Below are positions 2,216-25,910 of a DNA stretch of 25,910 nucleotides, in pieces. This stretch comes from a virus (Duplodnaviria > Caudoviricetes): IMG/VR virus record IMGVR_UViG_3300032272_000065, positions 1 to 25,910 of that record; one strand, 5' to 3'. The stretch's first letter is position 1. Each line of letters begins with the position of its first letter. The notes under the pieces were generated by a model that was not told the origin of the DNA, made no database searches, and saw nothing but the letters and a program-made list of their open reading frames with translations. The position numbers were made by a program, and so were the translations under genes.

Positions 2216-2274
2216 AGTACCATCTTGACTGGTGGCACTTGTTTTTTTATTAAATAACATGATGGAGGTAAATC

Positions 2275-2712: not shown

Positions 2713-2721
2713 TCATGATGG

Positions 2722-2750: not shown

Positions 2751-2765
2751 CTATAGCGAGGTAAC

Positions 2766-7930: not shown

Positions 7931-8112
7931 TGGCACGAATGAGCAAAGAAGAGCTGGCTGATGTTGGTAAGTGGAGCAATAAGTCTCAAGCCTCTAAAGG
8001 TGGTACTGTGAATCATGTGTTAAGCGATGCCGCGAAAGAAACTTATGAAAATATGAAAAAGTATTGCGGCTGCCCTATGGGACAACGATGCGGGTGTAAA
8101 GAATGCCAGTAA
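7930..8112 (+). CDS. Small protein with Cys-rich C-terminus
   Basis: 60 aa ORF filling the gap exactly, TAATG overlap upstream; ends CGCPMGQRCGCKECQ. Confidence 0.55.
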   Translation: MARMSKEELADVGKWSNKSQASKGGTVNHVLSDAAKETYENMKKYCGCPMGQRCGCKECQ

Positions 8113-12700: not shown

Positions 12701-13750
12701 CACCAAGAAAAAGACCTGTCTGACATACTCAAGGCTAGGTTTAATGAAGTGGGTACTACCGGCGTTCTGGGGCTATACAAGAACCTGTCATATATTGATA
12801 CTATGGGGTCGGTTGCTTCGGCTGTTACTCAAATAGGTGATATCGCATGGTCATTGTATCAGAATGGCGTTGCTTATACCGCTGATGGAGTGATTAAAGC
12901 ATCAACCGGAAAGTCAGCTATTACCAGAGAAGATATTGGCGTTGAGAGAATAGCCGCTGAATTTGCGGATCAGACAAAGGCGGCCAAGGCAGTATCAAAA
13001 GTATTTAAGATTATTGGCCTTGAGAAGATGGACGCTATAGGAAAAGAGACTTTGCTTCATGCGTCATGGACTAAGTTTAAAAATAGAGCCAAGCGCAGCC
13101 CTGCAAAACTACGGAAAGAATTGCAGCCAATCTTCGGCGATAGGACAGACCAGTTAATGACTGACCTCGAAGAAGGTACTATCACCGAAGATGTTAAGCT
13201 GTTGATGTTTAACAAGCTGGCTGACTTCCAGCCCATAACATTGTCAGAAATGCCTCAAAAGTATTTAACCGGTGGTAACGGACGTATATTTTACATGCTG
13301 AAGACTTTCACGATAAAATCATTTGATATTTACCGGCGTGAAGTATTCCAGCAGATAGCGAATAAAGATACTAGGGCCCAGGGGATCACTAATCTAGTCC
13401 GTCTTGCTTCTTATTTTGTATTCGCTAATGCTACTGCTGATGTGATTAAGGCTATTATCCTAAACAGACCAATAGAGCCAGATGATTTGGCGGTTGATAA
13501 TCTCCTTAGGCTTTTCGGTATATCTAAGTTTGTTACATGGAAAGCAAGAGAGGAGGGCTTAGGTGTTGCAGCTCGTGGGCAGATATTCCCACCAACTAAG
13601 CTTATAAACGCACTAAGTAAAGATATTAATACCGCTGGTGATGAAAAGGGACTTGAGACAGTATCGTCAATTCCGGTCTTTGGTAAATTATATTATTGGT
13701 GGTTTGGGAAAGGCAAAAAGAAGTCCGACAGAAGGAGAAATAAAAAATGA
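9776..13750 (+). CDS. Large internal virion (ejection) protein, gp16-like
   Basis: ~1324 aa with a Gly-rich hydrophobic segment near the N-terminus; TGATG coupling; precedes the tail fibre. Confidence 0.75.
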   Translation: MARSIEEILAAAEQFSQEEDVVETSPQADDGRLSGILAKAKQFKPVKEIPELTEAPAPSLFSQAKEFFADPAKEKAIATQAMVDSQIFGISLSDAYNKRFAIDHDAKITPERAAIRETAYSIFTKNYKTANTGLQRDYLYSQQIYDENPQRQRKIDEYNQAMAETGEIGLPESRVQDILEATGKTLPFMVNTASNGQWLGLAAGLGGFALGTATLGPEAGIPLGVEFYGAGVTTGSLMYSAQVMAGSNYRELLEFESESGEKINKGVAKFGALASGSLMGLVEVAQMKTLFKSFGGDKALAGVVSKTLANLSESGAVTQAIVRFGGVYGTTLATETKQEVQQEMIKIVGDELSKVATNYLDGKNIERATTKDVVSQLATTITESIKGLGLVSGLGPAARFGGDIAKVSTAKIDAARIEKAIADEVEQEKVIDEVVTTDEATTEAVREELQSVVDENDIQDYQNIVAQAGVIAEERVDAIFQADRDEINKRAEAEGVAIAAEDPIQQVMSSAVEQGGILLTDQIQADYGETITEIIKKRPGLFSKKGTLVLDEIAVDEAGFDTEADFINAVAEVATKKDTVAKLSPELAAEELGAVDQFEEEFRQEVLLQEETKAISELLATEKPELRAELDKIVASIPSGVSVSAIERKQLTEAFAEAKAAQRSGDDAVFQEAKDKIAGLVDKFKVDSRAIPESSYQENREAVEPTILATATRDAKDIVKQIGKGVDRYLGSISTRLANISPKLKYVLREFEFQVGVKEAEMVRASEPFFAKVQKMEKGDMADFDLARKNADTTKINELLDKYEMATEYAAVREVLNKLHADAVSVGFDIGFIEEFNPRYITDMKGFLEHFQKGDDWSVISDAIRGKEAELGHYLDFQEKAQFINSMLRGYGQGNITLSKPSVLKERKIDTITPELNKFYSTSEAALLNYIHETNSAIEARRFFGKKAKPENVGENDDTIGSFVLDLIQSGEIKAHQEKDLSDILKARFNEVGTTGVLGLYKNLSYIDTMGSVASAVTQIGDIAWSLYQNGVAYTADGVIKASTGKSAITREDIGVERIAAEFADQTKAAKAVSKVFKIIGLEKMDAIGKETLLHASWTKFKNRAKRSPAKLRKELQPIFGDRTDQLMTDLEEGTITEDVKLLMFNKLADFQPITLSEMPQKYLTGGNGRIFYMLKTFTIKSFDIYRREVFQQIANKDTRAQGITNLVRLASYFVFANATADVIKAIILNRPIEPDDLAVDNLLRLFGISKFVTWKAREEGLGVAARGQIFPPTKLINALSKDINTAGDEKGLETVSSIPVFGKLYYWWFGKGKKKSDRRRNKK

Positions 13751-14760
13751 CAGTACCAAGCGAAGCGAATCCGGTTCAATCATGGGACGGTGATGATGTA
13801 ACGGTTGCTTTCTCAATATCAACCTATTCATTCCTTGCGGTTACTGATATTACAGTGGCTCGTACCGATACTGACGGAACTAGCACCACATTAACGAAAG
13901 ATGCAGCCGGTGAGGATGGTTACACCTTGTCAGGGACAACCATTACTATGAACACGGCTCCCGCTACAGGCGAGGAGTTGGTTGCAACCAGAGATACTAC
14001 CAGAACACAGCTACTTGATTTGGTCAATAATAGGTCAAGCAACCCTGATAATCTGGAAACGGCTCTTGACCGGTTAACGTACATAACGCAGGAAAACAAC
14101 TACAACAGCGTTAGCCAAGCTGTTCGGGCTGATAGTTCGGTAACAGATACACCAGATTTAACATTTGCTGGCACAGCGGCGTATAGGGCTGACAGATATA
14201 TTGGTTTTGATAGCTCTGGTGATATCGCGTTATTGGCGGCATTGGCCGGGTCGGCACTTCTTGACGAAGATAACATGGCCAGCGATTCTAACACCCAGGG
14301 GGCAACGCAGCAGAGCATCAAGGCTTATGCTGACGCTATTACAGCTGCGATGACAGCTCGATACCCAGCGGGGATGATATGCCTTTGGTCTGGGGCTATT
14401 TCAGATATCCCAGCGGGGTTTGCTTTATGTGACGGGTCAAACGGCACTCCACCTCTAACAGACCGCTTTATACTACATGCTGATGCTGATACCGGTGGCA
14501 CTAACGATGTTGGAGATACAGGGACAGGTGCAGGTACATCTGAAGATTACACATTAGAGATAGGGGATATCCCAAACCATTCACATTCAACCCCTGGCAA
14601 TATTGGTACTGGTTCTGGTATTTCTTCTGGTGCTGACTTTGCAGGGAATGCTTCTTTAACCTCTGGAGCTTCTGGTGGTGGTGGGGCTCATGCCCATGGG
14701 ATAAATAACGCTAACTACAAACCTAAATATTATGCACTTGCATATATAATGAAACTATAG
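13747..14760 (+). CDS. Tail fibre protein (T7 gp17-like anchor plus collar domain)
   Basis: GDDVTVAFSI...F, LETALDRLT anchor; collar motif PAGMICLWSG...IPAGFALCDGSNGTPPLTDRF; ends PKYYALAYIMKL. Confidence 0.88.
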   Translation: MTVPSEANPVQSWDGDDVTVAFSISTYSFLAVTDITVARTDTDGTSTTLTKDAAGEDGYTLSGTTITMNTAPATGEELVATRDTTRTQLLDLVNNRSSNPDNLETALDRLTYITQENNYNSVSQAVRADSSVTDTPDLTFAGTAAYRADRYIGFDSSGDIALLAALAGSALLDEDNMASDSNTQGATQQSIKAYADAITAAMTARYPAGMICLWSGAISDIPAGFALCDGSNGTPPLTDRFILHADADTGGTNDVGDTGTGAGTSEDYTLEIGDIPNHSHSTPGNIGTGSGISSGADFAGNASLTSGASGGGGAHAHGINNANYKPKYYALAYIMKL

Positions 14761-14767
14761 GTGTATT

Positions 14768-15394
14768 ATGAAACGGATATTATTTACAGTATTGTTACTG
14801 GCATTTACGACAAACGTATGTTTAGCAGATGATAGAAACTCCACTCAATTCAAGAGGGATCCCACAACTGGTAGTATTGCGTCAGTTGACTATCCACATC
14901 TAGAGATACACTCTGGCAGTGCGTATAATGTTCATGATTATGACCTCACATTGGCAGCTGATGAAAACCTTAATGTATGCTTCACTACTCCAGACACCTC
15001 CAAGTGGTTCCATTTAACTGTTGGTTATTCATGCTCTTTGGCGTGTACTGCTCAAATATTATCTGGGTCAACTGTAACCGCTAATTCAGGTACAGAAACC
15101 GCTCCAATGAATCACAATGGTAACTCTTCTAAAACCAGCACCGCCTATGATTTGCAGACTGTTCCGGTAATAAACAGTGTTAGTATAGGAGCGACCATCA
15201 CAGTTGATGGTACTGAATTACATGGAGAAGTAATAGGGGCCGCAAAGTCACAAGGTGGAACCGTTGGTGGTGGAGAAAGGCACGAGTATATACTGGAACA
15301 GGGGGTTACACATTGCATCAGATTGTTGCGGGATTCCACTGTAGGTAATTCTATAAGCTCGTTAGAGGTTAACTGGTATGAACACACCAACTAG
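14768..15394 (+). CDS. Hypothetical beta-rich protein with signal-peptide-like N-terminus (paralog 1)
   Basis: MKRILFTVLLLAFTTNVCLA leader; similar along its length to the next ORF; ends YEHTN. Confidence 0.75.
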   Translation: MKRILFTVLLLAFTTNVCLADDRNSTQFKRDPTTGSIASVDYPHLEIHSGSAYNVHDYDLTLAADENLNVCFTTPDTSKWFHLTVGYSCSLACTAQILSGSTVTANSGTETAPMNHNGNSSKTSTAYDLQTVPVINSVSIGATITVDGTELHGEVIGAAKSQGGTVGGGERHEYILEQGVTHCIRLLRDSTVGNSISSLEVNWYEHTN

Positions 15395-15401
15395 ACATAT
15401 T

Positions 15402-16010
15402 ATGAAAATTAAATTACTGCTACTCATACTGCTATTTGCAACACCATGTTTTGCCGGTGACAGGAACCACACCCAATTTGGGAAAGACACTAGCACCGGT
15501 TCGATTTTAGCTATTGGCTATGCTCACCATGAGATACATGAGGGTAACTCTTTTGTTGCAGGTTCGTCCGGTATTCTTGCTAACGAGGCATCCTTAAAAA
15601 TATCATTCAGGACACCAGACACGGATAAATGGTCTCACTTTAATTACGCGGCTGCTTGTTCATTAGACGCTACATTAACATTTACTGAGAATCCTACTGT
15701 TACCGTTAATACCGGATCTGCGCTCCCGATATACAATAACAATAGAAATTCAACCAATACATCTATTTTACTTGGATCTTCTACCGGTGTGTACGTTGCT
15801 AACAGCTTAACATTGGGAGCAACAATGTCAGGTGGTACATCCATAAAGCCTGTGGTACATCTAGGAAGTGGCAAGAAAACTGGTGGTGGTGCTAGTTCTT
15901 TCACTGAAGCTGTTCTAAAACAGAACGAAGATTACTCGGTTGTGCTGACTAGCGAGGCCGCAGATAACCATTGTTTTCTTGAGATATATGAATATGAACA
16001 TACAAACTGA
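15402..16010 (+). CDS. Hypothetical beta-rich protein with signal-peptide-like N-terminus (paralog 2)
   Basis: MKIKLLLLILLFATPCFA leader; start set at 15402 by alignment with paralog 1; ends YEHTN. Confidence 0.75.
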   Translation: MKIKLLLLILLFATPCFAGDRNHTQFGKDTSTGSILAIGYAHHEIHEGNSFVAGSSGILANEASLKISFRTPDTDKWSHFNYAAACSLDATLTFTENPTVTVNTGSALPIYNNNRNSTNTSILLGSSTGVYVANSLTLGATMSGGTSIKPVVHLGSGKKTGGGASSFTEAVLKQNEDYSVVLTSEAADNHCFLEIYEYEHTN

Positions 16011-16018
16011 GGTGTAAC

Positions 16019-16285
16019 ATGGCTGGCCCTGGTGACAACTTTAAGAAAGATGACCAATACTACCCGTATTCTCACGGAGACTTACAGGTACGCCTCGCTT
16101 ATGATGCGAATGGGAATGTTGAGTATGTAGGGTACGGTTTACCTGGAGCGTTAGATAGTGATGAAAAATGGCAGATCGAGAAGTTTACGTACACTTCTGG
16201 CAAGATTGTAAGTGGTAAATATGCTGGCGGTTCTAATATATACGACAAGGAATGGGATGAAAGAGCATCTTATTCATATAGTTAA
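16019..16285 (+). CDS. Small tail-module protein with a YD-like motif
   Basis: YDANGNVEYVG...WQIEK...WDERASYSY; GAGGTG RBS. Confidence 0.7.
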   Translation: MAGPGDNFKKDDQYYPYSHGDLQVRLAYDANGNVEYVGYGLPGALDSDEKWQIEKFTYTSGKIVSGKYAGGSNIYDKEWDERASYSYS

Positions 16286-16294
16286 GGTGGTATA

Positions 16295-17074
16295 ATGGAT
16301 AAAGCTATTTTTGATCCACTATTAAAATCGTTAAAAACTGACGGTGGTTTGTCTAGCTTGATAACCTCAAGTCGTGGCATTAATGAGGTGGGCAGCGTAG
16401 GCACTGATACTGTTATTGATTGGGCTAATGGTGGGGTTCAGATTATCACCGTTACTGCCGTTATCAATATCACATTTACAGGATGGGACACGTTAATAGC
16501 TGACGGTGAAGCTCAGTCCGGCACATTAATTATCATTGACTCAGGCGACTGGAACCCAACATGGTCAACGCTGCTTCAGACCGAGGGCGAAGCAGATTTT
16601 ACCTACACGGCAGACAAGGCAATTGTGCTTGAGTTCCTTAATGTCGAAGGTGGCGACTATGTGCCTTATGGCGGTTGGCAGGTTGCAGCCGATACTTATT
16701 TGACATTAGGCACCGAGCTTGTTGATGATCCTAGCTTCGATGATACCGCAGATTGGACTGAATCTGGTAACATGTCAGTTACGGGCGGCCAGTTAGTCTT
16801 AACCGCTGCAACGTCAGAGACTACGGTGGAAGCCGCACCATTAACCGCTGTAGCCACAGCATCATATCTAGTCGTTACCGTGATAGACGAGGTGACAACG
16901 GCTGGCGGTGGTGTTAAGATGAACGTAGGCAGTACAGACGGGGCCACATATACAACGGTAGGCACGAAAGCCGAGGTTATTGTGGCCACTGATACTGACG
17001 GCCTTGAGATAATCGCAGCAGGGGCCGCAATGACGGCTAAAATTGGCTCGGTATCAGTGAAGAGGTTATACTAA
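16295..17074 (+). CDS. Putative tail fibre/spike accessory protein with a carbohydrate-binding-like C-terminal domain
   Basis: IDWANGGVQ..T motif and LGTELVDDPSFDDTADW motif; Thr/Gly/Val-rich. Confidence 0.6.
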   Translation: MDKAIFDPLLKSLKTDGGLSSLITSSRGINEVGSVGTDTVIDWANGGVQIITVTAVINITFTGWDTLIADGEAQSGTLIIIDSGDWNPTWSTLLQTEGEADFTYTADKAIVLEFLNVEGGDYVPYGGWQVAADTYLTLGTELVDDPSFDDTADWTESGNMSVTGGQLVLTAATSETTVEAAPLTAVATASYLVVTVIDEVTTAGGGVKMNVGSTDGATYTTVGTKAEVIVATDTDGLEIIAAGAAMTAKIGSVSVKRLY

Positions 17075-17601
17075 TGCCTGATTACGGTAAATTTAAAGAT
17101 GATGTTCTGGTTGAGGAAATAACTTTCACTCGCAAATTTGTGCCGGTCGGTGGCCGTAAAGCATCAAACCACTCGCCACAATGGATGAAGAAGCACGGCT
17201 ATGTCCCATATATTAAGCCAACTGTCTTGGATGGTGAGTATGAAGGGGTTGAAAATATACCAACAAAGGAAAACAGTGTCATAGTATCTTACACTCACGC
17301 CATAAAGACCAAGGATTATTCGACTATAAGGGCTGAGATAACTAGTGCAATAGAATCAAAAGCATACGCCCTTGTTTCTTCAGTGAATAGCTCTATTATC
17401 GATACAGCAGCAAAAACAAAAGTGAACGATTTAGTATCCTCTAAGTGCAAAGGGCTGTTGCTTGAACTTGCAGAAACTACCGATATCAACCTTAAATATT
17501 TCGATTACACATCGACATGGGATGGTATAGAAGACTTTGGGACAATAGACCTTACTGAAAGCACATGGACAAAACTTAAACGTTATATGTTCGGGGTTTA
17601 A
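17074..17601 (+). CDS. Hypothetical protein, possibly tail fibre assembly
   Basis: 175 aa, translationally coupled, lies between fibre-like genes. Confidence 0.6.
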   Translation: MPDYGKFKDDVLVEEITFTRKFVPVGGRKASNHSPQWMKKHGYVPYIKPTVLDGEYEGVENIPTKENSVIVSYTHAIKTKDYSTIRAEITSAIESKAYALVSSVNSSIIDTAAKTKVNDLVSSKCKGLLLELAETTDINLKYFDYTSTWDGIEDFGTIDLTESTWTKLKRYMFGV

Positions 17602-18279
17602 ATGTTACATCATGCAATGCGGAGAGTCGTGGCTGGTGCTGGATCTGATGAGTTTACAGTGCTGCACGTTCCATCTAATACTACAGATGGAGACACTACG
17701 TTTATAGATACATCTCCATCTAACCACACAATAACCCCGAATGGTGCATTTGCACACAAGACAGCGCAATCTTATTCAGGAGCATCTAGCTACTTATCTG
17801 CCGCTAGTACGTCATACGGTACTATGACTGATAGTTTAACTGACTTCGTTTTAGGGGATACATTTTTCATAAACTTCCAAGTCTATTTTAATGTTGCTAC
17901 GGGTAATCAATACTTTATAGGGTATGGTGGAGGATATGCTGGATGGCGTGGCACTGACGGTCATGTATTCACTGTTTTTAAACTTGGAACAAATATATTC
18001 TATTTCCAATTTTGGAACGGATCAGCAATACGATCAATCTCGTTTTCGTGGACTCCTTCAGCTAGTCAATGGTACAATATAGAAATTTCCTGTAATAATG
18101 GGGCATTTTCTATAGATATTGATACTGTGGAAAAAGTTACTTCGTCAGGGGTAAGTGTATCTGACGTAACAACACCATTAAGGCTTGCTATGTGTAGCCT
18201 TGCTAATTTAGGAACAACAGCAAACAACTTTTATATGGATAATCTTATCATTAGAAAAGGGATTTCAACAGGGCTTTAA
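17602..18279 (+). CDS. LamG/concanavalin A-like lectin domain protein (putative receptor binding)
   Basis: DGDTTFIDTSPSNHTIT, DFVLG..F.I.F.VY, QWYNI, and YMDNLIIRKG motifs. Confidence 0.75.
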   Translation: MLHHAMRRVVAGAGSDEFTVLHVPSNTTDGDTTFIDTSPSNHTITPNGAFAHKTAQSYSGASSYLSAASTSYGTMTDSLTDFVLGDTFFINFQVYFNVATGNQYFIGYGGGYAGWRGTDGHVFTVFKLGTNIFYFQFWNGSAIRSISFSWTPSASQWYNIEISCNNGAFSIDIDTVEKVTSSGVSVSDVTTPLRLAMCSLANLGTTANNFYMDNLIIRKGISTGL

Positions 18280-18325
18280 AAGTTTATAGCTAAATATATA
18301 ATTAATCAATGATCCGGTGGGTTGA

Positions 18326-18613
18326 ATGGCAGAATGTGACGGTTGTGTAAAGAGTGGGCACAGGTTATTAGTTCAAGTAGTCATGGGATCTATATTCGTT
18401 CTCGCTGTAAGCGGTATCTTGTCATGGAAATCAGCTTTTGCGAAGGATGACCGTGATGACAAACAAGAGCAAATGATAGCAGTAATGCAGACAACACTGA
18501 CCCAATACGTCAAGAATTCAGAAGAAACCCGTTCTGACATTAAGGAGCTGGCACAAATTACCATGCAGATGAACCTCAATCTACAAACTCACATCGCGGC
18601 GACAAGTAAATGA
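18326..18613 (+). CDS. Membrane protein with one TM segment and a coiled coil (holin/antiholin-like)
   Basis: Hydrophobic LLVQVVMGSIFVLAVSGILSW; lies directly upstream of the endolysin. Confidence 0.6.
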   Translation: MAECDGCVKSGHRLLVQVVMGSIFVLAVSGILSWKSAFAKDDRDDKQEQMIAVMQTTLTQYVKNSEETRSDIKELAQITMQMNLNLQTHIAATSK

Positions 18614-18945
18614 GCCTCAGAGAGAACCAAAGCCGTTTCGCGTTAAATGTTGCGTTCCTAATTCTTGAAGCGGAGAAACTAGGCTACGAGGTGACGCTAG
18701 GTGACTCTTTCAGAGACCCTAGGGTTTTCGGTAAGGTTGGAGAGAAGAAAGGTTATAGCCACAAGAACAGCACTCATAAATCACGCCTTGCCATTGACCT
18801 TAACCTTTTTAAAGACGGTCGATATATTACTGATTCAGAAGGGCATGACAAGTTACATGACTTCTGGGTCGATAAATGCGGTGGTTCTCCGATGATTAAA
18901 GGTGATCCGAACCACTATTCATACAAGCATAATGGGGTATCATAA
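18610..18945 (+). CDS. Endolysin, peptidase M15 family
   Basis: GYEVTLGDSFRDP, S.HKSRLAIDLNLFKDG (H-x6-D) and DPNHYS zinc-ligand motifs. Confidence 0.88.
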   Translation: MSLRENQSRFALNVAFLILEAEKLGYEVTLGDSFRDPRVFGKVGEKKGYSHKNSTHKSRLAIDLNLFKDGRYITDSEGHDKLHDFWVDKCGGSPMIKGDPNHYSYKHNGVS

Positions 18946-19448
18946 TGGGTATAGATCTAACTGGGATTTCAGGTGTAACAGATTTAGCTGGTGGGATTAT
19001 GGATCGCTTCTGGCCTAAGAAGATGGACGAAGGTGAAAAGGCATCGGCTAAACTTGGCATGATATCCATGATTAAAGGGTTTCAAGCTAAAAGTGACGAG
19101 GCAAAAAAAAGTGTAATGGTTGCCGAGTTGAATCAAGGTGATGTTTACACTAAACGAGCGAGGCCGACAATTGTCTATGGCGGTTTAGCTATAATATTCA
19201 TTAACCATGTAATATTCCCAATGTTTGCATGGTGCGTTGGTGTGGCTACTGTTCTATTTGCTGGGACAATAACTCCAGAGTTGACCAATGCCCTAGTGTT
19301 GCCTTCTTTCTCTCTCCCTGCCGCGTTTTGGGCATCATGGACAGGAGTTACAGGTGTTTATTCTATTGGAAGGTCAATGGAGAAACGTGGCGTTACTGGC
19401 ATGGGCGGGAAAATAGCCAGTATGATTACCGGCAATAAACAACCTTAA
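18945..19448 (+). CDS. Holin, 3TM/GTA-holin-like family
   Basis: AELNQGDVYTKRARP, hydrophobic segments, GVYSIGRSMEK; follows the endolysin. Confidence 0.8.
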   Translation: MGIDLTGISGVTDLAGGIMDRFWPKKMDEGEKASAKLGMISMIKGFQAKSDEAKKSVMVAELNQGDVYTKRARPTIVYGGLAIIFINHVIFPMFAWCVGVATVLFAGTITPELTNALVLPSFSLPAAFWASWTGVTGVYSIGRSMEKRGVTGMGGKIASMITGNKQP

Positions 19449-19450
19449 AT

Positions 19451-19484
19451 AAAAAAGGCCGGGGCAATTCAAACCCCGGCCTTT
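19451..19484. terminator. Bidirectional intrinsic terminator between the convergent late and early modules
   Basis: AAAGGCCGGGG-caattcaaa-CCCCGGCCTTT perfect 11 bp stem; the A6 run gives a U tract on the - strand. Confidence 0.9.
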
Positions 19485-19527
19485 ACGCTCACAGCAATTA
19501 TATATTTCTAACCCCTCCTGTTTTGGT

Positions 19528-19866
19528 TTAACTCCAATCAGATAAAACCTTTCCTATCTGGCCACATATCCATTTAGCAAACCTTGTAGCAGACCAACCG
19601 TTGCGCCACTTCTCATTATTTAGGTACACGTTTACCTTGCCGCTGCCATTATTAATTTCATGCTTAATCTCAATATGGTTGCGTTGCTCAGTTATTGGGT
19701 TGTATGTATTCACCACGAAAAGCAGGGTAGTTTCTACCGATCTTTCCGGGCCGAATTTAAGCGCATTGGATAATCGGCCAATTTCTGACCGCCTCTGTGA
19801 CTCAATGCCTCCTAACCTACCACGGTTACGCTTCTTTTCGTATGTCGCATAATTAGGGTAACTCAT
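19528..19866 (-). CDS. Hypothetical basic protein
   Basis: 112 aa ORF, last gene before the terminator on -; no tyrosine recombinase motifs seen. Confidence 0.7.
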   Translation of the reverse strand: MSYPNYATYEKKRNRGRLGGIESQRRSEIGRLSNALKFGPERSVETTLLFVVNTYNPITEQRNHIEIKHEINNGSGKVNVYLNNEKWRNGWSATRFAKWICGQIGKVLSDWS

Positions 19867-19873
19867 AATTTCC

Positions 19874-19892
19874 AGTTAACAAGTAGTTATGT
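19874..19892 (+). other. attI-like simple site
   Basis: AGTTAAC-aagta-GTTATGT: inverted L and R boxes with a 5 bp spacer and no attC hairpin, at the 5' end of the attC array. Confidence 0.65.
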
Positions 19893-19894
19893 GT

Positions 19895-20104
19895 TCAGTC
19901 TGCTATAAATTCCCAGGTGTCATCACCGCACTGTACGGTATTAGGTTTTAGGGTGTTGCCTCTTATTCTCTGTACCCCATCCCTGTCGCCACATATTTTC
20001 TCCGCTTTCCTCAATTGGTGGGGGGTTATATCAGTGCAGCCCACACATAACAAAAAAATCAAGCAGATTGCCAGAACGGGTGCGAGTTTAGTTAATTTTC
20101 TCAT
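19895..20104 (-). CDS. Small lipoprotein (cassette 1)
   Basis: Signal peptide with lipobox LCVGC; AGGAG RBS inside attC1. Confidence 0.8.
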   Translation of the reverse strand: MRKLTKLAPVLAICLIFLLCVGCTDITPHQLRKAEKICGDRDGVQRIRGNTLKPNTVQCGDDTWEFIAD

Positions 20105-20168
20105 GTCAATTACTCCTGTGTTTAAGTGCCGCCACCATCTGGCAACGGCTTATTATAGGTCGTTAAAT
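20045..20168 (+). other. attC-like site 1 (124 bp)
   Basis: ACATAAC-5-AATCAAGC...TTGCCAGA / TCTGGCAA...GCTTATT-7-GTTAAAT; near-identical to site 8. Confidence 0.88.
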
Positions 20169-20396
20169 GCCTGTTTCAAAGAAACTTGTTTTCCCGCATT
20201 GCCAGCAATGGGCAGTATAAAATTTTACAGACCAGTGTTTCTCGTCAGGTTCTTCTCGGTCATAAAATACTTCAAACTTCTCAACACTTCTCGAAAGCAC
20301 ACTATCCACGGCGCAGTGCTGGCATTTAACCAGCGTATCAACGCGGACTTCGTCCACGGTTGCGGGTTGCGTCATTATTACTTTTTTAACGTCCAT
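20163..20396 (-). CDS. Small zinc-ribbon-like protein (cassette 2)
   Basis: CQHC and CWQC motifs; GGGGTG upstream of the ATG at 20396 (alternative start 20417); stop overlaps the GTTA core. Confidence 0.7.
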   Translation of the reverse strand: MDVKKVIMTQPATVDEVRVDTLVKCQHCAVDSVLSRSVEKFEVFYDREEPDEKHWSVKFYTAHCWQCGKTSFFETGI

Positions 20397-20455
20397 TTTT
20401 ATCACCCCATCACACATAGCTTGTCACCCCTCGCCGGTTATCCTTAATGTTAAAT
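20324..20455 (+). other. attC-like site 2 (132 bp)
   Basis: ATTTAAC-5-TATCAACGCGG ... CCGGTTATC-6-GTTAAAT. Confidence 0.78.
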
Positions 20456-20464
20456 GCCGCCAAA

Positions 20465-20704
20465 TTATTGTTTCATTTCAGCTAACATACCCCGTAAAAC
20501 TTCCACGCTGCCTCTCAACCATTCAGGAGTAGTCTTGTTATTTTCAAGCCTCTCCAGAATTACGGTAGTCAAAGTGGTTGCCATAAATAATTTGTTGGCA
20601 TTTAACCCGTCAATTAAGCGGGAATTACTGGCTTGGTGTTCATCTAAACACACAGCACACACAGCTACGTTAGCTTCTCTTAATTTACATATTGGGCAAA
20701 TCAT
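20465..20704 (-). CDS. Small protein with N-terminal CxxC...CxxC (cassette 3)
   Basis: MICPICK...VCAVC; GGGGA RBS before the ATG at 20704; the longer track ORF overlaps the next gene. Confidence 0.7.
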   Translation of the reverse strand: MICPICKLREANVAVCAVCLDEHQASNSRLIDGLNANKLFMATTLTTVILERLENNKTTPEWLRGSVEVLRGMLAEMKQ

Positions 20705-20732
20705 CGTAATCCCCTTATTGCTATCGTTATAA
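20600..20732 (+). other. attC-like site 3 (133 bp)
   Basis: ATTTAAC-5-AATTAAGCGGGAATTAC ... GTAATCCCCTTATT-6-GTTATAA. Confidence 0.85.
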
Positions 20733-20906
20733 ACCTGCCAAATTATCAAGGTTAACCAAAACCTCCATCTCCTTGTTGTCCTTGTCTGCAACGCATATCC
20801 CAACATCTTCATCAAGATAAATTTCGCAGTTATATTCTTCCAGCAAGGCTAATATTTTCTCGGTAAATTCGTCAACATCTCGCCATCCCTCAACTCTTCT
20901 TTTCAT
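20727..20906 (-). CDS. Small acidic hypothetical protein (cassette 4)
   Basis: MKRRVEGW...; AAGGTG upstream of the ATG at 20906; stop overlaps the GTTA core. Confidence 0.65.
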   Translation of the reverse strand: MKRRVEGWRDVDEFTEKILALLEEYNCEIYLDEDVGICVADKDNKEMEVLVNLDNLAGL

Positions 20907-20929
20907 CCTAATCACCTTCCCGTATGGGT

Positions 20930-21015
20930 TTATAACAAAATAATTAATCTGAGCCGTACAAGTAAGCGGCCTGCGGTATTTCTCCGTGGCGGCCAGCTTA
21001 TTATCGGCGTTATAA
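20930..21015 (+). other. attC-like site 4 (86 bp)
   Basis: TTATAAC-5-AATTAATCTGAGCCG ... CGGCCAGCTTATT-6-GTTATAA. Confidence 0.83.
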
Positions 21016-21040
21016 ACCCGTTCTAACAGGTTGGGCAGGG

Positions 21041-21619
21041 CTAGTTCGTTTTGTTGGCCCATTGCTCAACAATCGCCTTTGCCACACCGTCAAACGTTTT
21101 ACTCCTGTCCCGTTTCCGGGTTTCGCTTGGGGGCATCTTCCACACTCGCTGTTCTCTACCGTCCACAATGTTTGTCGGCTTCAGTGGCTCCAAGTTGTGC
21201 AGAGCAAATCCGGTCTTTTTAGTTTCTCCGTGTCCATGCTCCCACGGTTGCAGATAAAAAACGTTCGGCAAGTGGCTAAATATTACGCTCACGGGGTTTT
21301 CAAGCGCCACCCTGTCACTGTGCAGTACAGCCAGTTCCCAAAGCCGCTTAGTCCATTCTACTTGTGCCAGCCGCTTGTCGTTCATCGGCATCCCTTTTCC
21401 GTACCACCTGTTTCCACTCACAGCCATTGCGGTGCAGTCAGGGTGCAATATTATCAAATCCCAATATCTGGATGGCACTACCTGCATTATGTCCTGTTGC
21501 AAGTGCCATTCTGGGTTTCCCCTTGTCGGCTCAAGGTCACAGCTAAAAGCCTCGTGTTCTGCTTCCCGCAATGCTTTTGTAATTGTCTGGCTCTCTTCAC
21601 ACCCGACTAAAACAATCAC
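21041..21619 (-). CDS. Short phage DNA cytosine methyltransferase-like protein (cassette 5)
   Basis: VLVGCEES, SCDL, WDLIILHPDCT, ALENP, QPWEHGHGETKKT and RSKTF.GVA.AI..QW motifs. Confidence 0.8.
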   Translation of the reverse strand: MIVLVGCEESQTITKALREAEHEAFSCDLEPTRGNPEWHLQQDIMQVVPSRYWDLIILHPDCTAMAVSGNRWYGKGMPMNDKRLAQVEWTKRLWELAVLHSDRVALENPVSVIFSHLPNVFYLQPWEHGHGETKKTGFALHNLEPLKPTNIVDGREQRVWKMPPSETRKRDRSKTFDGVAKAIVEQWANKTN

Positions 21620-21936
21620 TCTTCCAGCCCCATCAGCAAAGAAAATTCATACCTGATCTTTCTAGTCCTTTCTTTAATCCCATCATTGTACGAAGCGTGG
21701 CAGAGATAAATACAAGCCTCTATATCCTCATTTGTCCAATGTGATGGCACACCCATCAGAAGCTCCCCTTTTTTGGGGCAATTAAAATGTTTTCTTGATT
21801 CATCGCTAATCCCTAGATATACCCCATCAATATCACCAAGGTGCTTAGACTTTTCTCTGGTTATCCCCAGATCACTAATCATTTTCAATCCGTACTCTTT
21901 AACTCTCTTTATAAAAAGACCGTTAGTTTTAATCAT
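21616..21936 (-). CDS. Hypothetical protein (cassette 5)
   Basis: AAGGAGG RBS before the ATG at 21936 (MIKTNGLF...); GTGA overlap with the methyltransferase start. Confidence 0.75.
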   Translation of the reverse strand: MIKTNGLFIKRVKEYGLKMISDLGITREKSKHLGDIDGVYLGISDESRKHFNCPKKGELLMGVPSHWTNEDIEACIYLCHASYNDGIKERTRKIRYEFSLLMGLEE

Positions 21937-21991
21937 GCTGTCCTCCTTTAAAGCATATGTATTACTGTTCAATTGCCCGTTAACCTTCGGT

Positions 21992-22078
21992 TTATAACAA
22001 ACAAAATCACTCTGACCGCAAGAACGGTTGCGGCCCCACTTTAGTTCGGTGGGCGGCAGGTGTTTTGCGGCGTTATGT
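21992..22078 (+). other. attC-like site 5 (87 bp)
   Basis: TTATAAC-5-AAATCACTCTGACCGC ... GCGGCAGGTGTTT-6-GTTATGT. Confidence 0.83.
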
Positions 22079-22270
22079 TTCTTCCAAATAATCAGGGTGG
22101 ATATCTTCTGTATTACATTCAATGTCCATATCCTCACCCATTATATCGGCAAGTCCATCAGCAGTATGGTACGTCAAAGGTACACACACAGGTTCGTCTT
22201 TAAGTATGTCAATTACACGAAACTGTCCGTCACAGTAATCAGGCTCTATTCTATATCTTTTTATTTTCAT
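22073..22270 (-). CDS. Small acidic hypothetical protein (cassette 6)
   Basis: AAGGAGGT RBS; stop overlaps the GTTA core. Confidence 0.8.
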   Translation of the reverse strand: MKIKRYRIEPDYCDGQFRVIDILKDEPVCVPLTYHTADGLADIMGEDMDIECNTEDIHPDYLEET

Positions 22271-22283
22271 AATACCTCCTTAA

Positions 22284-22340
22284 ACATAACCAAAAATTCA
22301 AGCGGACGTAAGACACGCCGCTTAATATAGCACGTTATGT
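22284..22340 (+). other. attC-like site 6 (57 bp, minimal 59-be type)
   Basis: ACATAAC-caaaa-ATTCAAGCGGACGT-aagac-ACGCCGCTTAAT-7-GTTATGT; unpaired C and A on top give extrahelical G and T on the bottom strand, as in canonical attC. Confidence 0.92.
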
Positions 22341-22610
22341 TTAAATCTTTTTCCAACCGACAACTTCAATGTTATCTAATTTGTCCAGATCAATATCAAC
22401 ATTTTGCTTGCATGTCGGTTGGCATAATAACCAGCCGTTTTCTCCATCTGGAGGCCAACATACATATTGCCATTCAATACCTTCTCGTTCTTTGCATAAA
22501 ACAAGCACTTGGTCGTCTATATCGTCAGGGATATTCTTAGGGTCAAGCCAACATAACCCGCCGCTTAACGCTGAATTGCTAATGGTTGCGGTTTTAGTTT
22601 CTTCGGTCAT
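22341..22610 (-). CDS. Small hypothetical protein (cassette 7)
   Basis: 89 aa; GGAG and ATG inside attC7; W...P....QVLV...W..V.GW pattern. Confidence 0.75.
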   Translation of the reverse strand: MTEETKTATISNSALSGGLCWLDPKNIPDDIDDQVLVLCKEREGIEWQYVCWPPDGENGWLLCQPTCKQNVDIDLDKLDNIEVVGWKKI

Positions 22611-22680
22611 AGCATCATCTCCAGTTGTTTTATTAATTATCAGTCGCTAACCCGCAATCAGGTTAGCTATTTCGTTATGT
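22551..22680 (+). other. attC-like site 7 (130 bp)
   Basis: ACATAAC-5-GCTTAACGCTGAATTGC ... GCAATCAGGTTAGC-6-GTTATGT. Confidence 0.87.
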
Positions 22681-22682
22681 TC

Positions 22683-22985
22683 TTACCGTTTTTTCCTTCT
22701 TACGGTAGCCGTTCCGCTGCTTGATGATAGCGCACCAACTCCAATGGCAAAGCCAAAGTCATACCACCCACCGTTATTATATATGGCATAAATTGCGGTG
22801 CTATCCGAAAACAGTGATACAAGCCAAGAGAATGGTAAAATCATTCCATGCCACAAACCATACCAAAATCCTACTGGCTGTATAGTTGCGGCACTGTTAA
22901 ATGTGGCGTGGTCGGCGCAGCCAGAACATAACAAAAAAATAAAGCAGATTGCCAGAACGGGTGCGGTTTTAATCATTGCTTTCAT
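22683..22985 (-). CDS. Membrane-associated lipoprotein (cassette 8)
   Basis: Lipobox LCSGC; hydrophobic GFWYGLWHG...NNGGWYDFGF domain; AGGAG RBS inside attC8. Confidence 0.85.
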   Translation of the reverse strand: MKAMIKTAPVLAICFIFLLCSGCADHATFNSAATIQPVGFWYGLWHGMILPFSWLVSLFSDSTAIYAIYNNGGWYDFGFAIGVGALSSSSGTATVRRKKR

Positions 22986-23047
22986 GTCAATTTCTCCTGT
23001 GTTTAGGTGCCACCACCATCTGGCAACGGCTTATTAAATCGTTATGT
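22926..23047 (+). other. attC-like site 8 (122 bp)
   Basis: ACATAAC-5-AATAAAGC...TTGCCAGA / TCTGGCAA..GCTTATT-5-GTTATGT; near-copy of site 1. Confidence 0.88.
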
Positions 23048-23245
23048 TCTAAAAAGGATGCGATTGTCTGGAGCATATTTCGGCTCAGATCGTTCTCGCT
23101 CCATTGGTATTTCTTTACCGTGCGGCTCTTTCGGTGTTGCCCCGCAGCTGGTGCATGTTGGTGTTGGTGGGTAAATTCCTCCCCAGTTACTTGGCACCAT
23201 CACGGCACCGCCACATAATGAGCATGTTCCAATAGTAGTATCCAT
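23042..23245 (-). CDS. Small zinc-ribbon protein (cassette 9)
   Basis: CSLCGG...CTSCGA; AAGGAG RBS; stop overlaps the GTTA core. Confidence 0.8.
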   Translation of the reverse strand: MDTTIGTCSLCGGAVMVPSNWGGIYPPTPTCTSCGATPKEPHGKEIPMERERSEPKYAPDNRILFRT

Positions 23246-23266
23246 CTTTCGAGTCTCCTTTTTAAA

Positions 23267-23359
23267 ACATAACCAGCCTAATTAAAGCAGACGGCTAGAA
23301 GTTTTGCGGCCCATAAGGGGATTTCCTTTTGGGGCCGCTGTTTATTAGCAATGTTGGGC
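23267..23359 (+). other. attC-like site 9 (93 bp)
   Basis: ACATAAC-5-TAATTAAAGCAGACGGC ... GCCGCTGTTTATTA-5-GTTGGGC. Confidence 0.85.
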
Positions 23360-23386
23360 TGCACATACAGTCACAGCCCGTCAGGT

Positions 23387-23674
23387 TTAAACTTCTGCCC
23401 TATCCAGCACGTTGTTTATGCGGTCAATGGAGTTCTCAATAGTCTCCAGTTTCTCCCGCATTTCACTAAACAGTGGGGGGTATTCTCTGGCAACCTTGTC
23501 GCAGCCATCAGGAGATGGGCAGGCAGATTGACATATTGGGTGCAGTTTATCGGCAGTCCTGCAAGCTACCTTCTCTGCTGCGCTGGCAAGTCTGTCTAGG
23601 GCGTTCATAACCTCACGTGCTATCGGGTCTTGTGCGGGTGCTACACATGCTTTACCACTATTACAGTCATCCAT
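23387..23674 (-). CDS. Helical-hairpin/coiled-coil hypothetical protein (cassette 10)
   Basis: 95 aa; GGAGG RBS. Confidence 0.8.
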   Translation of the reverse strand: MDDCNSGKACVAPAQDPIAREVMNALDRLASAAEKVACRTADKLHPICQSACPSPDGCDKVAREYPPLFSEMREKLETIENSIDRINNVLDRAEV

Positions 23675-23700
23675 CTTAAATATCCTCCGTTAAATTAAAA

Positions 23701-23787
23701 GCCCAACCAGTCTAATTAACTCAGACAGGGAGAACTCATGCGGCCTCACCACCATTGGTGGCCCGCTGGTTATTAGTTTTGTTAAAA
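23701..23787 (+). other. attC-like site 10 (87 bp)
   Basis: GCCCAAC-cagt-CTAATTAACTCAGACAGGG ... CCCGCTGGTTATTAG-tttt-GTTAAAA. Confidence 0.85.
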
Positions 23788-23796
23788 AACGCGGAT

Positions 23797-24027
23797 TTAT
23801 TTTTCTATCTGTATGCCATCCCTCAATATATCTTCGGCTAACCAACCGTGGTACTTCCCAGCATCATGTTTTTCAGTATCGGCAATTATCAGTTCAGCTG
23901 TTAGTATTTCGTCTTTTTCAAACATTTTACCCGGCAAAAAACCGATCACCATTGTCACATCCTGTCCGTCTATTGACTTTCTCGGCCCAACATATAGTTT
24001 GGCTGGTATTGGTAAATATTCGTTCAT
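23797..24027 (-). CDS. Small hypothetical protein (cassette 11)
   Basis: 76 aa; GGAGGT RBS. Confidence 0.8.
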   Translation of the reverse strand: MNEYLPIPAKLYVGPRKSIDGQDVTMVIGFLPGKMFEKDEILTAELIIADTEKHDAGKYHGWLAEDILRDGIQIEK

Positions 24028-24052
24028 ATTAGTACCTCCGTGGCGCTATGTT

Positions 24053-24110
24053 TTTTAACCAAAAATTCAAGCGGACGTGTACCACGCACGCTTAATATCG
24101 GTCGTTATGC
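24053..24110 (+). other. attC-like site 11 (58 bp, minimal type)
   Basis: TTTTAAC-caaaa-ATTCAAGCGGACGTG...CACGCACGCTTAAT-7-GTTATGC; related to site 6. Confidence 0.9.
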
Positions 24111-24112
24111 CG

Positions 24113-24355
24113 CTAAAATTTATCTGATTTTCCTGTAAATGGCGTTGTGTATCTAATTCCTATGTTCCCAAAACCATCAACATCACGGCAGACCATGTGC
24201 CATCCAACAATAGGCTCGGTTATATACTCTTCGGCAGTCATTACCTTATGTGCGGCATAACCAGTAAATTCAGGCGAAAAGCTAACGCTTGCGGCCTTGC
24301 TACATTCCGCGCATACAACTCGTCCGTTCATATAATCTTCGCATTGGCAACTCAT
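24113..24355 (-). CDS. Small protein with Cys-rich N-terminus (cassette 12)
   Basis: MSCQC...VCAEC; same GGGGATTACGATG start context as cassette 3. Confidence 0.7.
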   Translation of the reverse strand: MSCQCEDYMNGRVVCAECSKAASVSFSPEFTGYAAHKVMTAEEYITEPIVGWHMVCRDVDGFGNIGIRYTTPFTGKSDKF

Positions 24356-24383
24356 CGTAATCCCCTTATCTCAATCGTTCAAT
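24255..24383 (+). other. attC-like site 12 (129 bp, degenerate/chimeric, terminal)
   Basis: GCATAAC-5-AATTCAGG ... CCTTATC-6-GTTCAAT; right arm shares TCATCGTAATCCCCTTAT with site 3; inner arms pair poorly. Confidence 0.65.
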
Positions 24384-24804
24384 CTTCGGGAAACAACAAT
24401 TCAACCCGCCCAACATAATGTAATTGCATCGCCTCAAGACCACGAGCAAGCTGCTTAGTTTTCATCAAAGATGTTACTGGCAGGATCTCCATAGCCTTGA
24501 TCTTACTCTCGTATGGCAAAGGGTCAATCACGGCCTCACATGTGGCGTTAAACTCCGCATCCTCACCTCTTAGTATTGGCAAAAAGATATGCAGCTTACA
24601 GAGGCATTTTACCCCGTTGTCGGTGTATTCCATTTCCTCTAGTGCTACCTGTGTGCACCACGCATGTAAGAGCGCGTTCTGGTTAAGTGTTCGCGCCTTG
24701 CCAGTGCTTATGGTCACGGTTACGAACTTCTTTTCCTTGAACGCCTTTTTAAGCTGACCGATACACTCTGACAATGTGCGGGTGCTATTTACTTTAAGCT
24801 TCAT
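24379..24804 (-). CDS. ninB: NinB-like recombination accessory protein
   Basis: RTLNQNALLHAW motif, PILR and VTSLM.TKQL...LE pattern; 141 aa. Confidence 0.65.
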   Translation of the reverse strand: MKLKVNSTRTLSECIGQLKKAFKEKKFVTVTISTGKARTLNQNALLHAWCTQVALEEMEYTDNGVKCLCKLHIFLPILRGEDAEFNATCEAVIDPLPYESKIKAMEILPVTSLMKTKQLARGLEAMQLHYVGRVELLFPED

Positions 24805-24806
24805 GG

Positions 24807-25118
24807 TTAATCGTTCCCGTAAAATGATATGAACACATTTTTGTCAGATTTAGGATGCACCGACACAAAGTTAAGATCTTCATGGTAATCAATATCGCAA
24901 CTCCTAAGATTAAACCCAATACCACCCCTTCCGTAACCACCAAACAAACTAGTCCCTTCGCTCCTCACTGTAATCCTGTCGTCAAAAACCTCAAATTGGG
25001 TCGGCCTACCCTTCTTGTTCATGATTAGAAAATGATCGCATCCGCAGAACCTAAGTCTAAACCCTATCTTACTAAGCATCCCCGCCAACTTGTCAGTGTG
25101 TTCTGGCAAAACATCCAT
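24807..25118 (-). CDS. Hypothetical protein
   Basis: 103 aa; GGAGG RBS; tightly packed in the operon. Confidence 0.75.
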   Translation of the reverse strand: MDVLPEHTDKLAGMLSKIGFRLRFCGCDHFLIMNKKGRPTQFEVFDDRITVRSEGTSLFGGYGRGGIGFNLRSCDIDYHEDLNFVSVHPKSDKNVFISFYGND

Positions 25119-25122
25119 CTTG

Positions 25123-25392
25123 TCAACCTCCTCCGTTAAATTCTGTGCAAGTAGTTTCTGGGATTAAATAACCAGAGCTGTCTATAGTCATGCCCAGAGT
25201 TCTTGTTGAGTTCATCGACGTGCAATTATTCCATACCTCAAGCACTGCGGCTATGTTCCTTTGCTTCTCCGTTATGACTGCGGCTTTGGTTATGTCGATA
25301 TTGTTTTGCCGCAATATAGGGCCTAGAAGCAATCCTGTTATGATGACTACACATATAAATATGAAAAACGCTCTTAATGGATTATCTCTCAT
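25123..25392 (-). CDS. Small membrane-anchored protein
   Basis: N-terminal TM segment AFFIFICVVIITGLLLG; AAGGT RBS. Confidence 0.75.
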   Translation of the reverse strand: MRDNPLRAFFIFICVVIITGLLLGPILRQNNIDITKAAVITEKQRNIAAVLEVWNNCTSMNSTRTLGMTIDSSGYLIPETTCTEFNGGG

Positions 25393-25416
25393 GTTGTTAC
25401 CTTGTAAGGGGTGGGG

Positions 25417-25647
25417 TTAATAGTTGCCATCATTCAAAACACGGCACAGTCTACCGCCATGTATCGGCAGAGGTTTAAGGTTGTTATTTGTTAACTCAGA
25501 CCCATCTGACGCTAAACCGGTCAACCCGCAATTCTTCAACTCCTTAACTAGCCAGTGCAAAGCTACCGCCTCGCTCTCAGCCACAACTACAGCGGCGCAC
25601 CCAACTGGCCAGTGACCTTCAAAGTCTGTGCATGTCCAAGCTCTCAC
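25417..25647 (-). CDS. Small phage hypothetical protein
   Basis: GTG start with GGAGG RBS; FEGHWPVG.AAVVVA motif. Confidence 0.75.
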   Translation of the reverse strand: MRAWTCTDFEGHWPVGCAAVVVAESEAVALHWLVKELKNCGLTGLASDGSELTNNNLKPLPIHGGRLCRVLNDGNY

Positions 25648-25686
25648 AACCTACCTCCATATTTATACTGGCTTTACTAGCTGGCG

Positions 25687-25893
25687 TTATCTCTTAATGA
25701 ATTGGTACTTCATATGCAGGCCGTCTCGTTTTACCTCTTCAGCATCTCCAATATTAAGGGCTAAATCAATTGTTCTCCTTGCTCGGTTATAACACCACAT
25801 CATCCTTCTCTGAACACATGAAACATTGAAAAGCTGCCCAATCTTAAATGATCTTTTCAGGTCGTACAGATCTTCTTTGCCGTCCATTTTCAT
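25687..25893 (-). CDS. Small basic protein, possible winged helix (FtsK gamma-like pattern)
   Basis: NVSCVQRRMMWCYNRARRTID resembles the S.S.LQR....GYNRAAR..D pattern; AAGGAG RBS. Confidence 0.6.
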   Translation of the reverse strand: MKMDGKEDLYDLKRSFKIGQLFNVSCVQRRMMWCYNRARRTIDLALNIGDAEEVKRDGLHMKYQFIKR

Positions 25894-25910
25894 ATCTCCT
25901 TAAATTTGAA

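Follow-up and report, generated by a model that had tools for sequence, protein, structure and literature searches.

How does an array of integron cassettes come to lie in a phage with every one of its genes facing against the polarity of its recombination sites? Integron cassettes are gene stores of bacteria and have lately been seen as anti-phage libraries. The locus considered here lies in a viral contig of 25,910 bp (IMGVR_UViG_3300032272_000065, called the window throughout, at its full length), which is a fragment of a podophage carrying 12 attC sites and an attI-like site. With 12 attC sites within 4.4 kb and no match to the integron integrase IntI on a contig that is incomplete, the locus corresponds to a cluster of attC sites lacking an integron integrase (CALIN); the place next to the attI-like site, where a complete integron has its intI gene, holds an unrelated open reading frame (ORF) of 112 aa. 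The explanation we favour, with a probability of about 0.7, is that this is an integrase-less array of 12 cassettes whose genes lie on the bottom strand of the attC sites, likely transcribed by the phage and likely shuffled by a host IntI acting in trans.

The sites, of 57-133 bp each, are found between 20045 and 24383; they are given below with the bit scores of a covariance model (R1) and, for some, the scores of a two-arm detector.

attI-like simple site, 19874-19892, plus strand: L box, 5-nt spacer and R box, crossover G at 19886
attC1, 20045-20168, plus strand: 124 bp, 32.3 bits, 86% identical to attC8
attC2, 20324-20455, plus strand: 132 bp, 19.0 bits, detector 7.3 vs 1.7
attC3, 20600-20732, plus strand: 133 bp, 28.6 bits
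attC4, 20930-21015, plus strand: 86 bp, 32.3 bits
attC5, 21992-22078, plus strand: 87 bp, 21.1 bits
attC6, 22284-22340, plus strand: 57 bp, 43.8 bits
attC7, 22551-22680, plus strand: 130 bp, 24.4 bits
attC8, 22926-23047, plus strand: 122 bp, 24.9 bits
attC9, 23267-23359, plus strand: 93 bp, 14.2 bits, detector 8.5 vs 5.1
attC10, 23701-23787, plus strand: 87 bp, detector 8.5 vs 1.7, core rule holds
attC11, 24053-24110, plus strand: 58 bp, 28.3 bits, near-copies in another locus (L045)
attC12, 24255-24383, plus strand: 129 bp, 24.6 bits, degenerate L box, distal end of the array

The two-arm detector recognises 11 sites in the 4.55 kb of the array, against a mean of 0.27 (maximum 2) in 100 dinucleotide shuffles, and two sites in the remaining 21 kb of the window. 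All sites have the R'' and R' cores RYYYAAC and GTTRRRY, with invariant AAC and GTT, at the required separation of 55-141 bp; the outer four core bases are off consensus in several of them (GTTCAAT in attC12, for example). Pairing of L'' with L', an extra-helical L'' base and an unpaired central spacer are present in 11 of the 12 according to the detector, with spacers from 5/5 to 5/7.

The polarity of the array rests on two kinds of evidence. The extra L'' base is in the left arm at all 11 detector sites, which makes the plus strand the top strand, and this rule agreed with the polarity defined by intI at 132 of 133 control sites, which come from 19 loci with an intI gene. Model R1, built from 41 bacterial attC sites oriented by intI alone, matched 11 sites on the plus strand with 14-44 bits and none on the minus strand within the array. 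Each method misses one different site, attC10 for R1 and the degenerate attC12 for the detector, and the two weakest matches of R1 (19 bits for attC2, 14 bits for attC9) are marginal. An unconstrained hairpin scan of the window does not tell the strands apart. A first-pass annotation of this locus had already taken the plus strand as the attC top strand, and the covariance model bears this out. The leftmost core is an exact complement of the R'' of attC1 and has no L''/L' hairpin upstream; it probably belongs to an attI-like site, and could instead be a secondary site of the attG type; attI has no general consensus.

On this polarity all the genes are inverted. The 12 cassettes hold 13 ORFs, every one on the minus strand, and the usual arrangement, with the gene on the top strand upstream of attC, is found in none of them; the first-pass annotation had said as much. 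The genes are the following:

Cassette 1, 19895-20104, minus strand: 69 aa, predicted lipoprotein, weak phrog_7528 match
Cassette 2, 20163-20417, minus strand: starts inside attC2, at 20417 or 20396, and stops in the R' of attC1
Cassette 3, 20465-20704, minus strand: likely ATG at 20704 in attC3, ribosome site in L'; alternative TTG at 20749
Cassette 4, 20727-20906, minus strand: 59 aa, stop in R' of attC3
Cassette 5, downstream gene, 21041-21619, minus strand: orphan DNA methyltransferase, phrog_757, E 2e-47
Cassette 5, upstream gene, 21616-21936, minus strand: 106 aa, overlaps the methyltransferase start
Cassette 6, 22073-22270, minus strand: 65 aa, stop in R' of attC5
Cassette 7, 22341-22610, minus strand: 89 aa, start inside attC7
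Cassette 8 (c8), 22683-22985, minus strand: 100 aa, predicted lipoprotein, phrog_30702, E 1.6e-26
Cassette 9, 23042-23245, minus strand: 67 aa, stop in R' of attC8
Cassette 10, 23387-23674, minus strand: 95 aa
Cassette 11, 23797-24027, minus strand: 76 aa
Cassette 12, 24113-24355, minus strand: 80 aa, start inside attC12, ribosome site in L'

Several features indicate that the minus strand is the coding one. The codon usage of these ORFs is phage-like (mean +0.068, vs -0.176 for 12 overlapping plus-strand ORFs; p=3e-5), Shine-Dalgarno-like sites precede them and are missing from the overlapping plus-strand ORFs, and two of them, the methyltransferase and c8, have strong PHROG matches. Fifteen plus-strand ORFs tested against protein families gave two weak matches only (E 0.005 and 0.05).

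Each unit runs from G|TT through the gene to its own attC, as a cassette is defined to do, its first core being the R' of the preceding site or, for cassette 1, the core at 19886. In all 12 units the opening 7 nt are exactly complementary to the R'' of that same unit, while the same complementarity within linear hairpins is found in 5 of 12 (exact permutation p 1e-6 for the 12 units of the window). This is the pattern expected, at the level of sequence, of units that were once circular; taken alone it does not fix polarity. The stop codons follow the cores as well: the TAA stops at 20163, 20727, 22073 and 23042 are the TTA of G|TTA in R' (4 of 12 cassettes), at the very coordinates claimed in the first-pass annotation, and the other eight cassette stops are 7-34 nt away from the crossover G.

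The starts depend on the length of the site. In the six attC sites of at least 122 bp (1, 2, 3, 7, 8 and 12) the reading frame crosses the site and the best start is inside it, and in the six short ones the gene starts 14-56 nt outside. As a consequence of the plus polarity, starts within the long sites belong to the same cassette as their gene, so that ribosome site and N-terminus of six genes travel with them; in cassettes 1 and 8 ribosome site, start and signal peptide are all inside attC1 and attC8, respectively. In the messenger RNA the stops would lie at the foot of a hairpin, with the next ribosome site inside it or just past it, and this would permit translational coupling. The hairpins could even be nothing but RNA elements for coupling or mRNA processing that look like attC: the stops do lie at the 5' foot, the next ribosome site is often within the hairpin, and the RNA folds stably, at -19 to -36 kcal/mol. 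Such elements would leave unexplained the 7/7 complementarity, which spans the gene and not the hairpin, the canonical register of the extra base and the breakpoints at G|TT, and no Rfam family was matched (a scan of 19000-25910 gave three weak matches, all below gathering scores and none relevant). We regard this origin as very unlikely, and an RNA function may be a secondary role.

How are genes in this orientation expressed? From 1 to 19448 the plus strand carries podovirus-like genes for head, tail and lysis, among them those of the major head protein (phrog_212), of tail proteins and of a holin, and all plausible genes from 25910 down to 19528, a ninB-like gene included, are on the minus strand. 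The boundary between the two arms is a terminator-like hairpin:

Holin gene, ends at 19448, plus strand: last gene of the lysis module before the terminator-like hairpin
Intrinsic terminator-like hairpin, 19454-19484, minus strand: 12-pair stem and T run, head to head with the lysis genes
112-aa ORF, 19528-19866, minus strand: function unassigned, in the slot that intI occupies in related phage integrons
ninB-like phage gene, 24379-24804, minus strand: phrog_7283, E 3e-32, upstream of the array in the same operon

Expression of the array by the phage's own early transcript is likely from this gene order, since the array continues the minus-strand gene run after ninB, whose TGA stop is located in the R' of attC12 (24377-24383), and since the terminator-like hairpin closes the run. 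Within the array no minus-strand terminator-like site was found. One early transcript would thus enter past ninB, cross the array towards attI and end at 19454; a transcript of this kind would need no Pc (the cassette promoter of integrons), and the attI-proximal cassette would be transcribed last. Indeed Pc appears to be missing, because a consensus scan found no plus-strand promoter-like site (at least 9/12 matches) left of the array and there are no plus-strand genes for it to drive. The promoter scan gave 9 sites where 12.8 were expected. One sigma-70-like promoter on the minus strand, at 20152-20179, has 11/12 matches; its -35 element lies at the end of cassette 2, whereas its -10 element falls in attC1. 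Only the present order of cassettes creates this site, which would drive cassette 1 and may be due to chance. A search of sequencing runs for the array returned one DNA run (X1, possibly the source) and, among the matches listed, no RNA runs.

The first-pass annotation had also claimed that the cassettes would be silent in a host integron. Its polarity, inversion and stop positions stand; this claim holds as the default for promoterless cassettes and fails as a general rule, because an inverted cassette exists in a Vibrio chromosomal-type array (L006, where a methyltransferase cassette has about 100 nt upstream) and another is reported from Xanthomonas, and because a promoter-like site overlaps attC1. 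The attI-like site, the core match of all 12 units, the gene starts within the long attC sites and the generality of the layout among phages had escaped that annotation.

A piece of bacterial integron joined to a phage contig by the assembler would also give an array in a phage, and the Logan contigs of run X1 mostly miss 20155-21332, with none of the pieces listed spanning the whole stretch. However, one X1 contig covers 22052-25907 with no differences, from mid-array into the phage early genes, and dozens of phage contigs, as well as a phage in GenBank, are laid out in the same way, bacterial arrays being canonical; an artefact is therefore extremely improbable.

Evidence of mobility comes from other phages of this layout. 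Two viral loci (L012 and L041), 99.98% identical over 11.1 kb, split exactly at G|TT, past which L012 has an extra attC and L041 non-attC sequence; two more (L056 and L061) have one cassette in common with differing neighbours at both GTT cores. These comparisons, which are of sequences, have shown whole-cassette exchange at G|TT in such phages. Furthermore, of 13 non-edge ends that delimit shared blocks, 7 coincide with R' and none with R'', which gives functional support to the polarity. The positions where X1 contigs depart from the window (21009, 22078, 24109 and 24379) are each at an R' box or inside one, and one of these contigs continues into other sequence straight after the GTT at 24377-24383. 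The same run has a near-copy of attC5 with other DNA behind R' and a near-copy of attC11 with other flanks, and in one contig attC11 stands behind another bottom-strand ribosome site and ATG. A 39-nt stretch that begins at the crossover G (21009-21047) and contains a small hairpin recurs in an X1 contig with both flanks different.

The same data bear on the possibility that the array was built by IntI in the past and is now inert, its attC sites being kept as ribosome sites and N-terminal coding sequence. The absence of intI from the contig, the degenerate attC12, the coding constraint on six sites, the decayed attC sites found in relatives of the c8 gene (L305) and of attC1 (L285), and the lack in X1 of any joint that skips a cassette would all fit such a relic. 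On the other hand, the 12 cores are still perfectly matched, including those of the six sites that do not overlap coding sequence, attC5 and attC11 have near-copies with other neighbours in X1, and near-identical phages elsewhere differ at the exact crossover. A frozen relic is on this evidence unlikely.

Which enzyme would act on an integrase-less array? In fact, IntI above the family cut-off is encoded by 2 of the 41 viral records with inverted cassettes and by none of the 10 whose completeness is 90% or more, and each of the three bacterial genomes that have inverted (pro)phage-like arrays encodes it on a contig other than that of the array; the likely enzyme is therefore a host IntI in trans, which would gain, lose and reorder cassettes. 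Phage attC sites have been recombined by IntI1 in vivo, according to the accessible part of PMC9892861. The alternative is a recombinase of the phage's own, either IntI or a short enzyme of Xer type, encoded in sequence that the contig lacks. The contig is incomplete at 25.9 kb (it has no terminase and no replication genes, and is for this reason a fragment), an attI-like site is present, and two phage records with inverted arrays do encode IntI. However, intI follows the array directly in L065 and lies about 0.9 kb from a short attC match in G447, the corresponding slot of the window has an unrelated ORF and a terminator, and the near-complete records are all without IntI; we find an own recombinase quite unlikely. 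The 112-aa ORF is itself no integrase: it has no Pfam or PHROG match and IntI gave no tblastn match on the window; neither did Pfam and PHROGs reveal a recombinase among the 41 window proteins, and against the ESM Atlas the ORF had no usable match. The phage with intI next to its array is a temperate one, in which intI is downstream of and in line with the inverted array in a leftward early operon (L065:3160-5409).

The weakest step concerns why the mirrored layout is kept. It would persist because the genes stay co-directional with phage transcription and, in an early arm of lambdoid type, with the replication fork; we hold this possible, at somewhat less than even odds. In lambdoid-type early arms transcription is directed away from the origin, and an operon running away from the origin would place the bottom strand on the lagging-strand template, where attC folding and excision are easier. 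In section 5.1.1 of PMC8946536 this orientation is said to favour folding and excision, and chromosomal integrons to avoid it mostly. Transcription could also drive shuffling by itself and so keep the layout, RNA polymerase or an R-loop freeing the non-template bottom strand, which would then fold and recombine. The first-pass annotation was correct that the recombinogenic bottom strand is the non-template strand, a point true by geometry; a transcription bubble is, however, far shorter than a site of 57-133 nt, which counts against this mechanism. Transcription is listed among the factors that alter supercoiling, and hence cruciform extrusion (PMC8946536), but this effect is not strand-specific; the effect of the replication strand, by contrast, is experimentally supported directly. 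Lagging-strand exposure has better published support than the link from transcription to shuffling raised in the first-pass annotation, and we judge transcription-driven shuffling to be improbable.

The inverted layout is not peculiar to the window. A survey seeded with one pattern gave 125 loci in viral contigs (33 of 64 parts scanned) and 152 in bacterial genomes (4 of 64 parts); loci below 1 kb were dropped from the counts (51 of the 125 viral loci were short or duplicates), and 72 of the bacterial loci L135-L283 were classed. Inverted, canonical and mixed loci number 43, 23 and 8 among 74 viral loci and 8, 56 and 8 among the 72 bacterial ones; inverted, canonical and ambiguous cassettes number 112, 17 and 22 of 151 in viruses and 27, 170 and 53 of 250 in bacteria. 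Thirteen of the 27 inverted bacterial cassettes sit in three (pro)phage-like loci with phage genes (L147, L176 and L177; integrase, excisionase and Erf; endolysin and spanin; Mom-like), and of the eight bacterial loci called inverted these three are prophages (L147 and L177) or phage-like (L176). The remaining five were set aside, L161, L197 and L156 as apparent gene-caller errors on inspection, L173 as an isolated site and L179 as too short to class. A uniformly mirrored layout thus appears to be common among phage arrays.

The own-core rule holds for 96 of the 112 inverted cassettes of viruses and for 144 of the 170 canonical ones of bacteria, and the stop is in a core in 47 of 112 inverted (R') vs 74 of 170 canonical (R'') cassettes, that is, at mirror positions; starts inside attC are found in 25 of 112 inverted and 3 of 170 canonical cassettes. 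Methyltransferases are the commonest cargo shared among inverted arrays, and that of cassette 5, where two overlapping ORFs share 21010-21991, is 74% identical to the gene of an inverted cassette in another locus (L089). None of the window's cassettes turned up in canonical bacterial arrays; among 355 cassette genes, the protein matches across orientations are methyltransferases, with 25-49% identity. In L176 the same inverted cassette occurs twice (4035-4574 and 8156-8632, 98% identical) in an array of at least 11 sites, possibly through a long-read assembly error.

Among known systems the closest are the phage CALINs described by Qi, Rajabal, Ghaly, Tetu and Gillings (2023, PMC9892861), which share with the window attC clusters without intI in phages, orphan DNA methyltransferase cargo and a site type recombined by IntI1. 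They have few sites each, whereas the window has 12 and an attI-like site, and in its accessible part the article speaks of arrays 'most typical of bacterial' or divergent attC sites and makes no mention of inverted genes. The CALIN of MW202573 (L007, 2069-3738; Fig. 2D of that article) is itself inverted, with four model matches on the minus strand (E<0.001) and genes on the plus strand; it lies close to the end of an early gene run facing a lysis gene, as in the window. Our literature search, which did not cover the figures and annotation file of PMC9892861 or subscription papers, where it may be shown, found no report of the inversion of phage cassette arrays.

With sedentary chromosomal and class 1 integrons the window has in common the attC anatomy, the G|TT crossover, core/inverse-core complementarity and the stop in a core; it differs from them in having no intI or Pc, genes on the bottom strand, stops in R' and not in R'', starts often in attC, and an order of expression towards attI. 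A gene antisense to the attC top strand is also known from symE/sRNA-Xcc1 of Xanthomonas (bioRxiv 10.1101/2025.06.18.660453) and from the L006 methyltransferase cassette. From what is accessible of that preprint, single inverted bacterial cassettes are a minority outside Pc control, while the window has an array inverted throughout and aligned with an operon outside it. Insertion at secondary attG sites (Loot et al., bioRxiv 10.1101/2022.09.11.507474) offers a route of entry without an integron, for which the leftmost site of the window could be a target; the study found such insertion to have no strand or replication bias, so that insertion of this kind does not by itself explain a uniform inversion.

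Several points weigh against the explanation preferred here, an array shuffled by host IntI. The spacers deviate in several attC sites (5/7 in attC1, attC6 and attC11) and attC12 is degenerate, and unconstrained DNA folding prefers the bottom strand at 8 of 12 sites, mostly by less than 2 kcal/mol. No joint skipping a cassette was found in X1, whose cover of the array is partial; this run is possibly the source sample itself, and other organisms may have contributed its loose ends. No close relatives of this phage were found, so that we can only infer the shuffling of its own array: relatives by protein amount to one locus for NinB, two for the holin and two for the major capsid protein, with no related array and, in those five loci, no attC model match. 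Patterns specific to the attC sites of the window gave no locus in viral contigs and four in metagenomes, this contig accounting for two of the four. As the contig is a fragment, an own intI may lie on its absent part, and among the genomes searched for a host, 401 from one guessed phylum and three single ones, none matched. The replication origin is absent from the contig as well. Finally, 23 of the 74 viral loci are canonical, as is TJE1, and the survey, with its single seed motif, partial scan, crude gene caller and non-independent contigs, gives rough proportions.

Two side features of the window may be added. The 927-aa tail protein (4593-7376) has two E1_FCCH-like Pfam matches (E 2e-20), and a long inverted repeat bounded by AAC and GTT lies within an upstream ORF at 25166-25295, without attC spacers and without a model match.

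The sites that encode gene starts suggest a wider, rather doubtful hypothesis, according to which phage early operons would be a second, mirror-image pool of cassettes that parasitises host IntI, and also a birthplace of cassettes; as part of the same tentative proposal, attC sites would fuse onto the 5' ends of ordinary phage genes, the bottom strand providing a ribosome site, the start codon and, beyond these, a signal peptide. It draws on three observations. First, one attC family heads three unrelated predicted lipoproteins: the bottom strands of attC1 and attC8 each supply a ribosome site together with a predicted signal peptide of lipoprotein type, and a site of this type, 87% identical, heads the third, unrelated protein on a Mu-like contig (L284:1174-1296). 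Second, of 37 other viral loci with a member of the c8 family only two have it as a cassette, both inverted (sites L304:209-311 and L307:111-238), the homologue in L307 having a different attC-coded signal peptide, and L305, a close relative of L304, having decayed sites. Third, the methyltransferase has its own start in the window and an attC-coded N-terminus in L089. A test of independent capture on the c8 tree (31 distinct proteins) gave 3 changes with p-AU 0.125. No attC accompanies the c8 homologues of three Vibrio plasmid records, and among 50,697 phage records array DNA matched only in the c8 gene, in 7 Cellulophaga phages. Since R'' and R' form a perfect inverted repeat once the cassette is circular, a single flip between them would interconvert cassettes of phage and bacterial type, which fits the mirror-image rates of stops in the core (42% vs 44%).

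The origin of cassettes has been named as an open question (PMC8618304), and cassette formation becomes testable on phage gene families that are seen with and without attC, with junctions at R''. For annotation, pipelines that expect a gene followed by its attC will misassign such cassettes and their start codons. For the phages themselves, the mirror layout suggests that integron recombination is used for their own accessory genes, orphan methyltransferases included, and that phage and host cassette pools may be largely insulated from each other by orientation.

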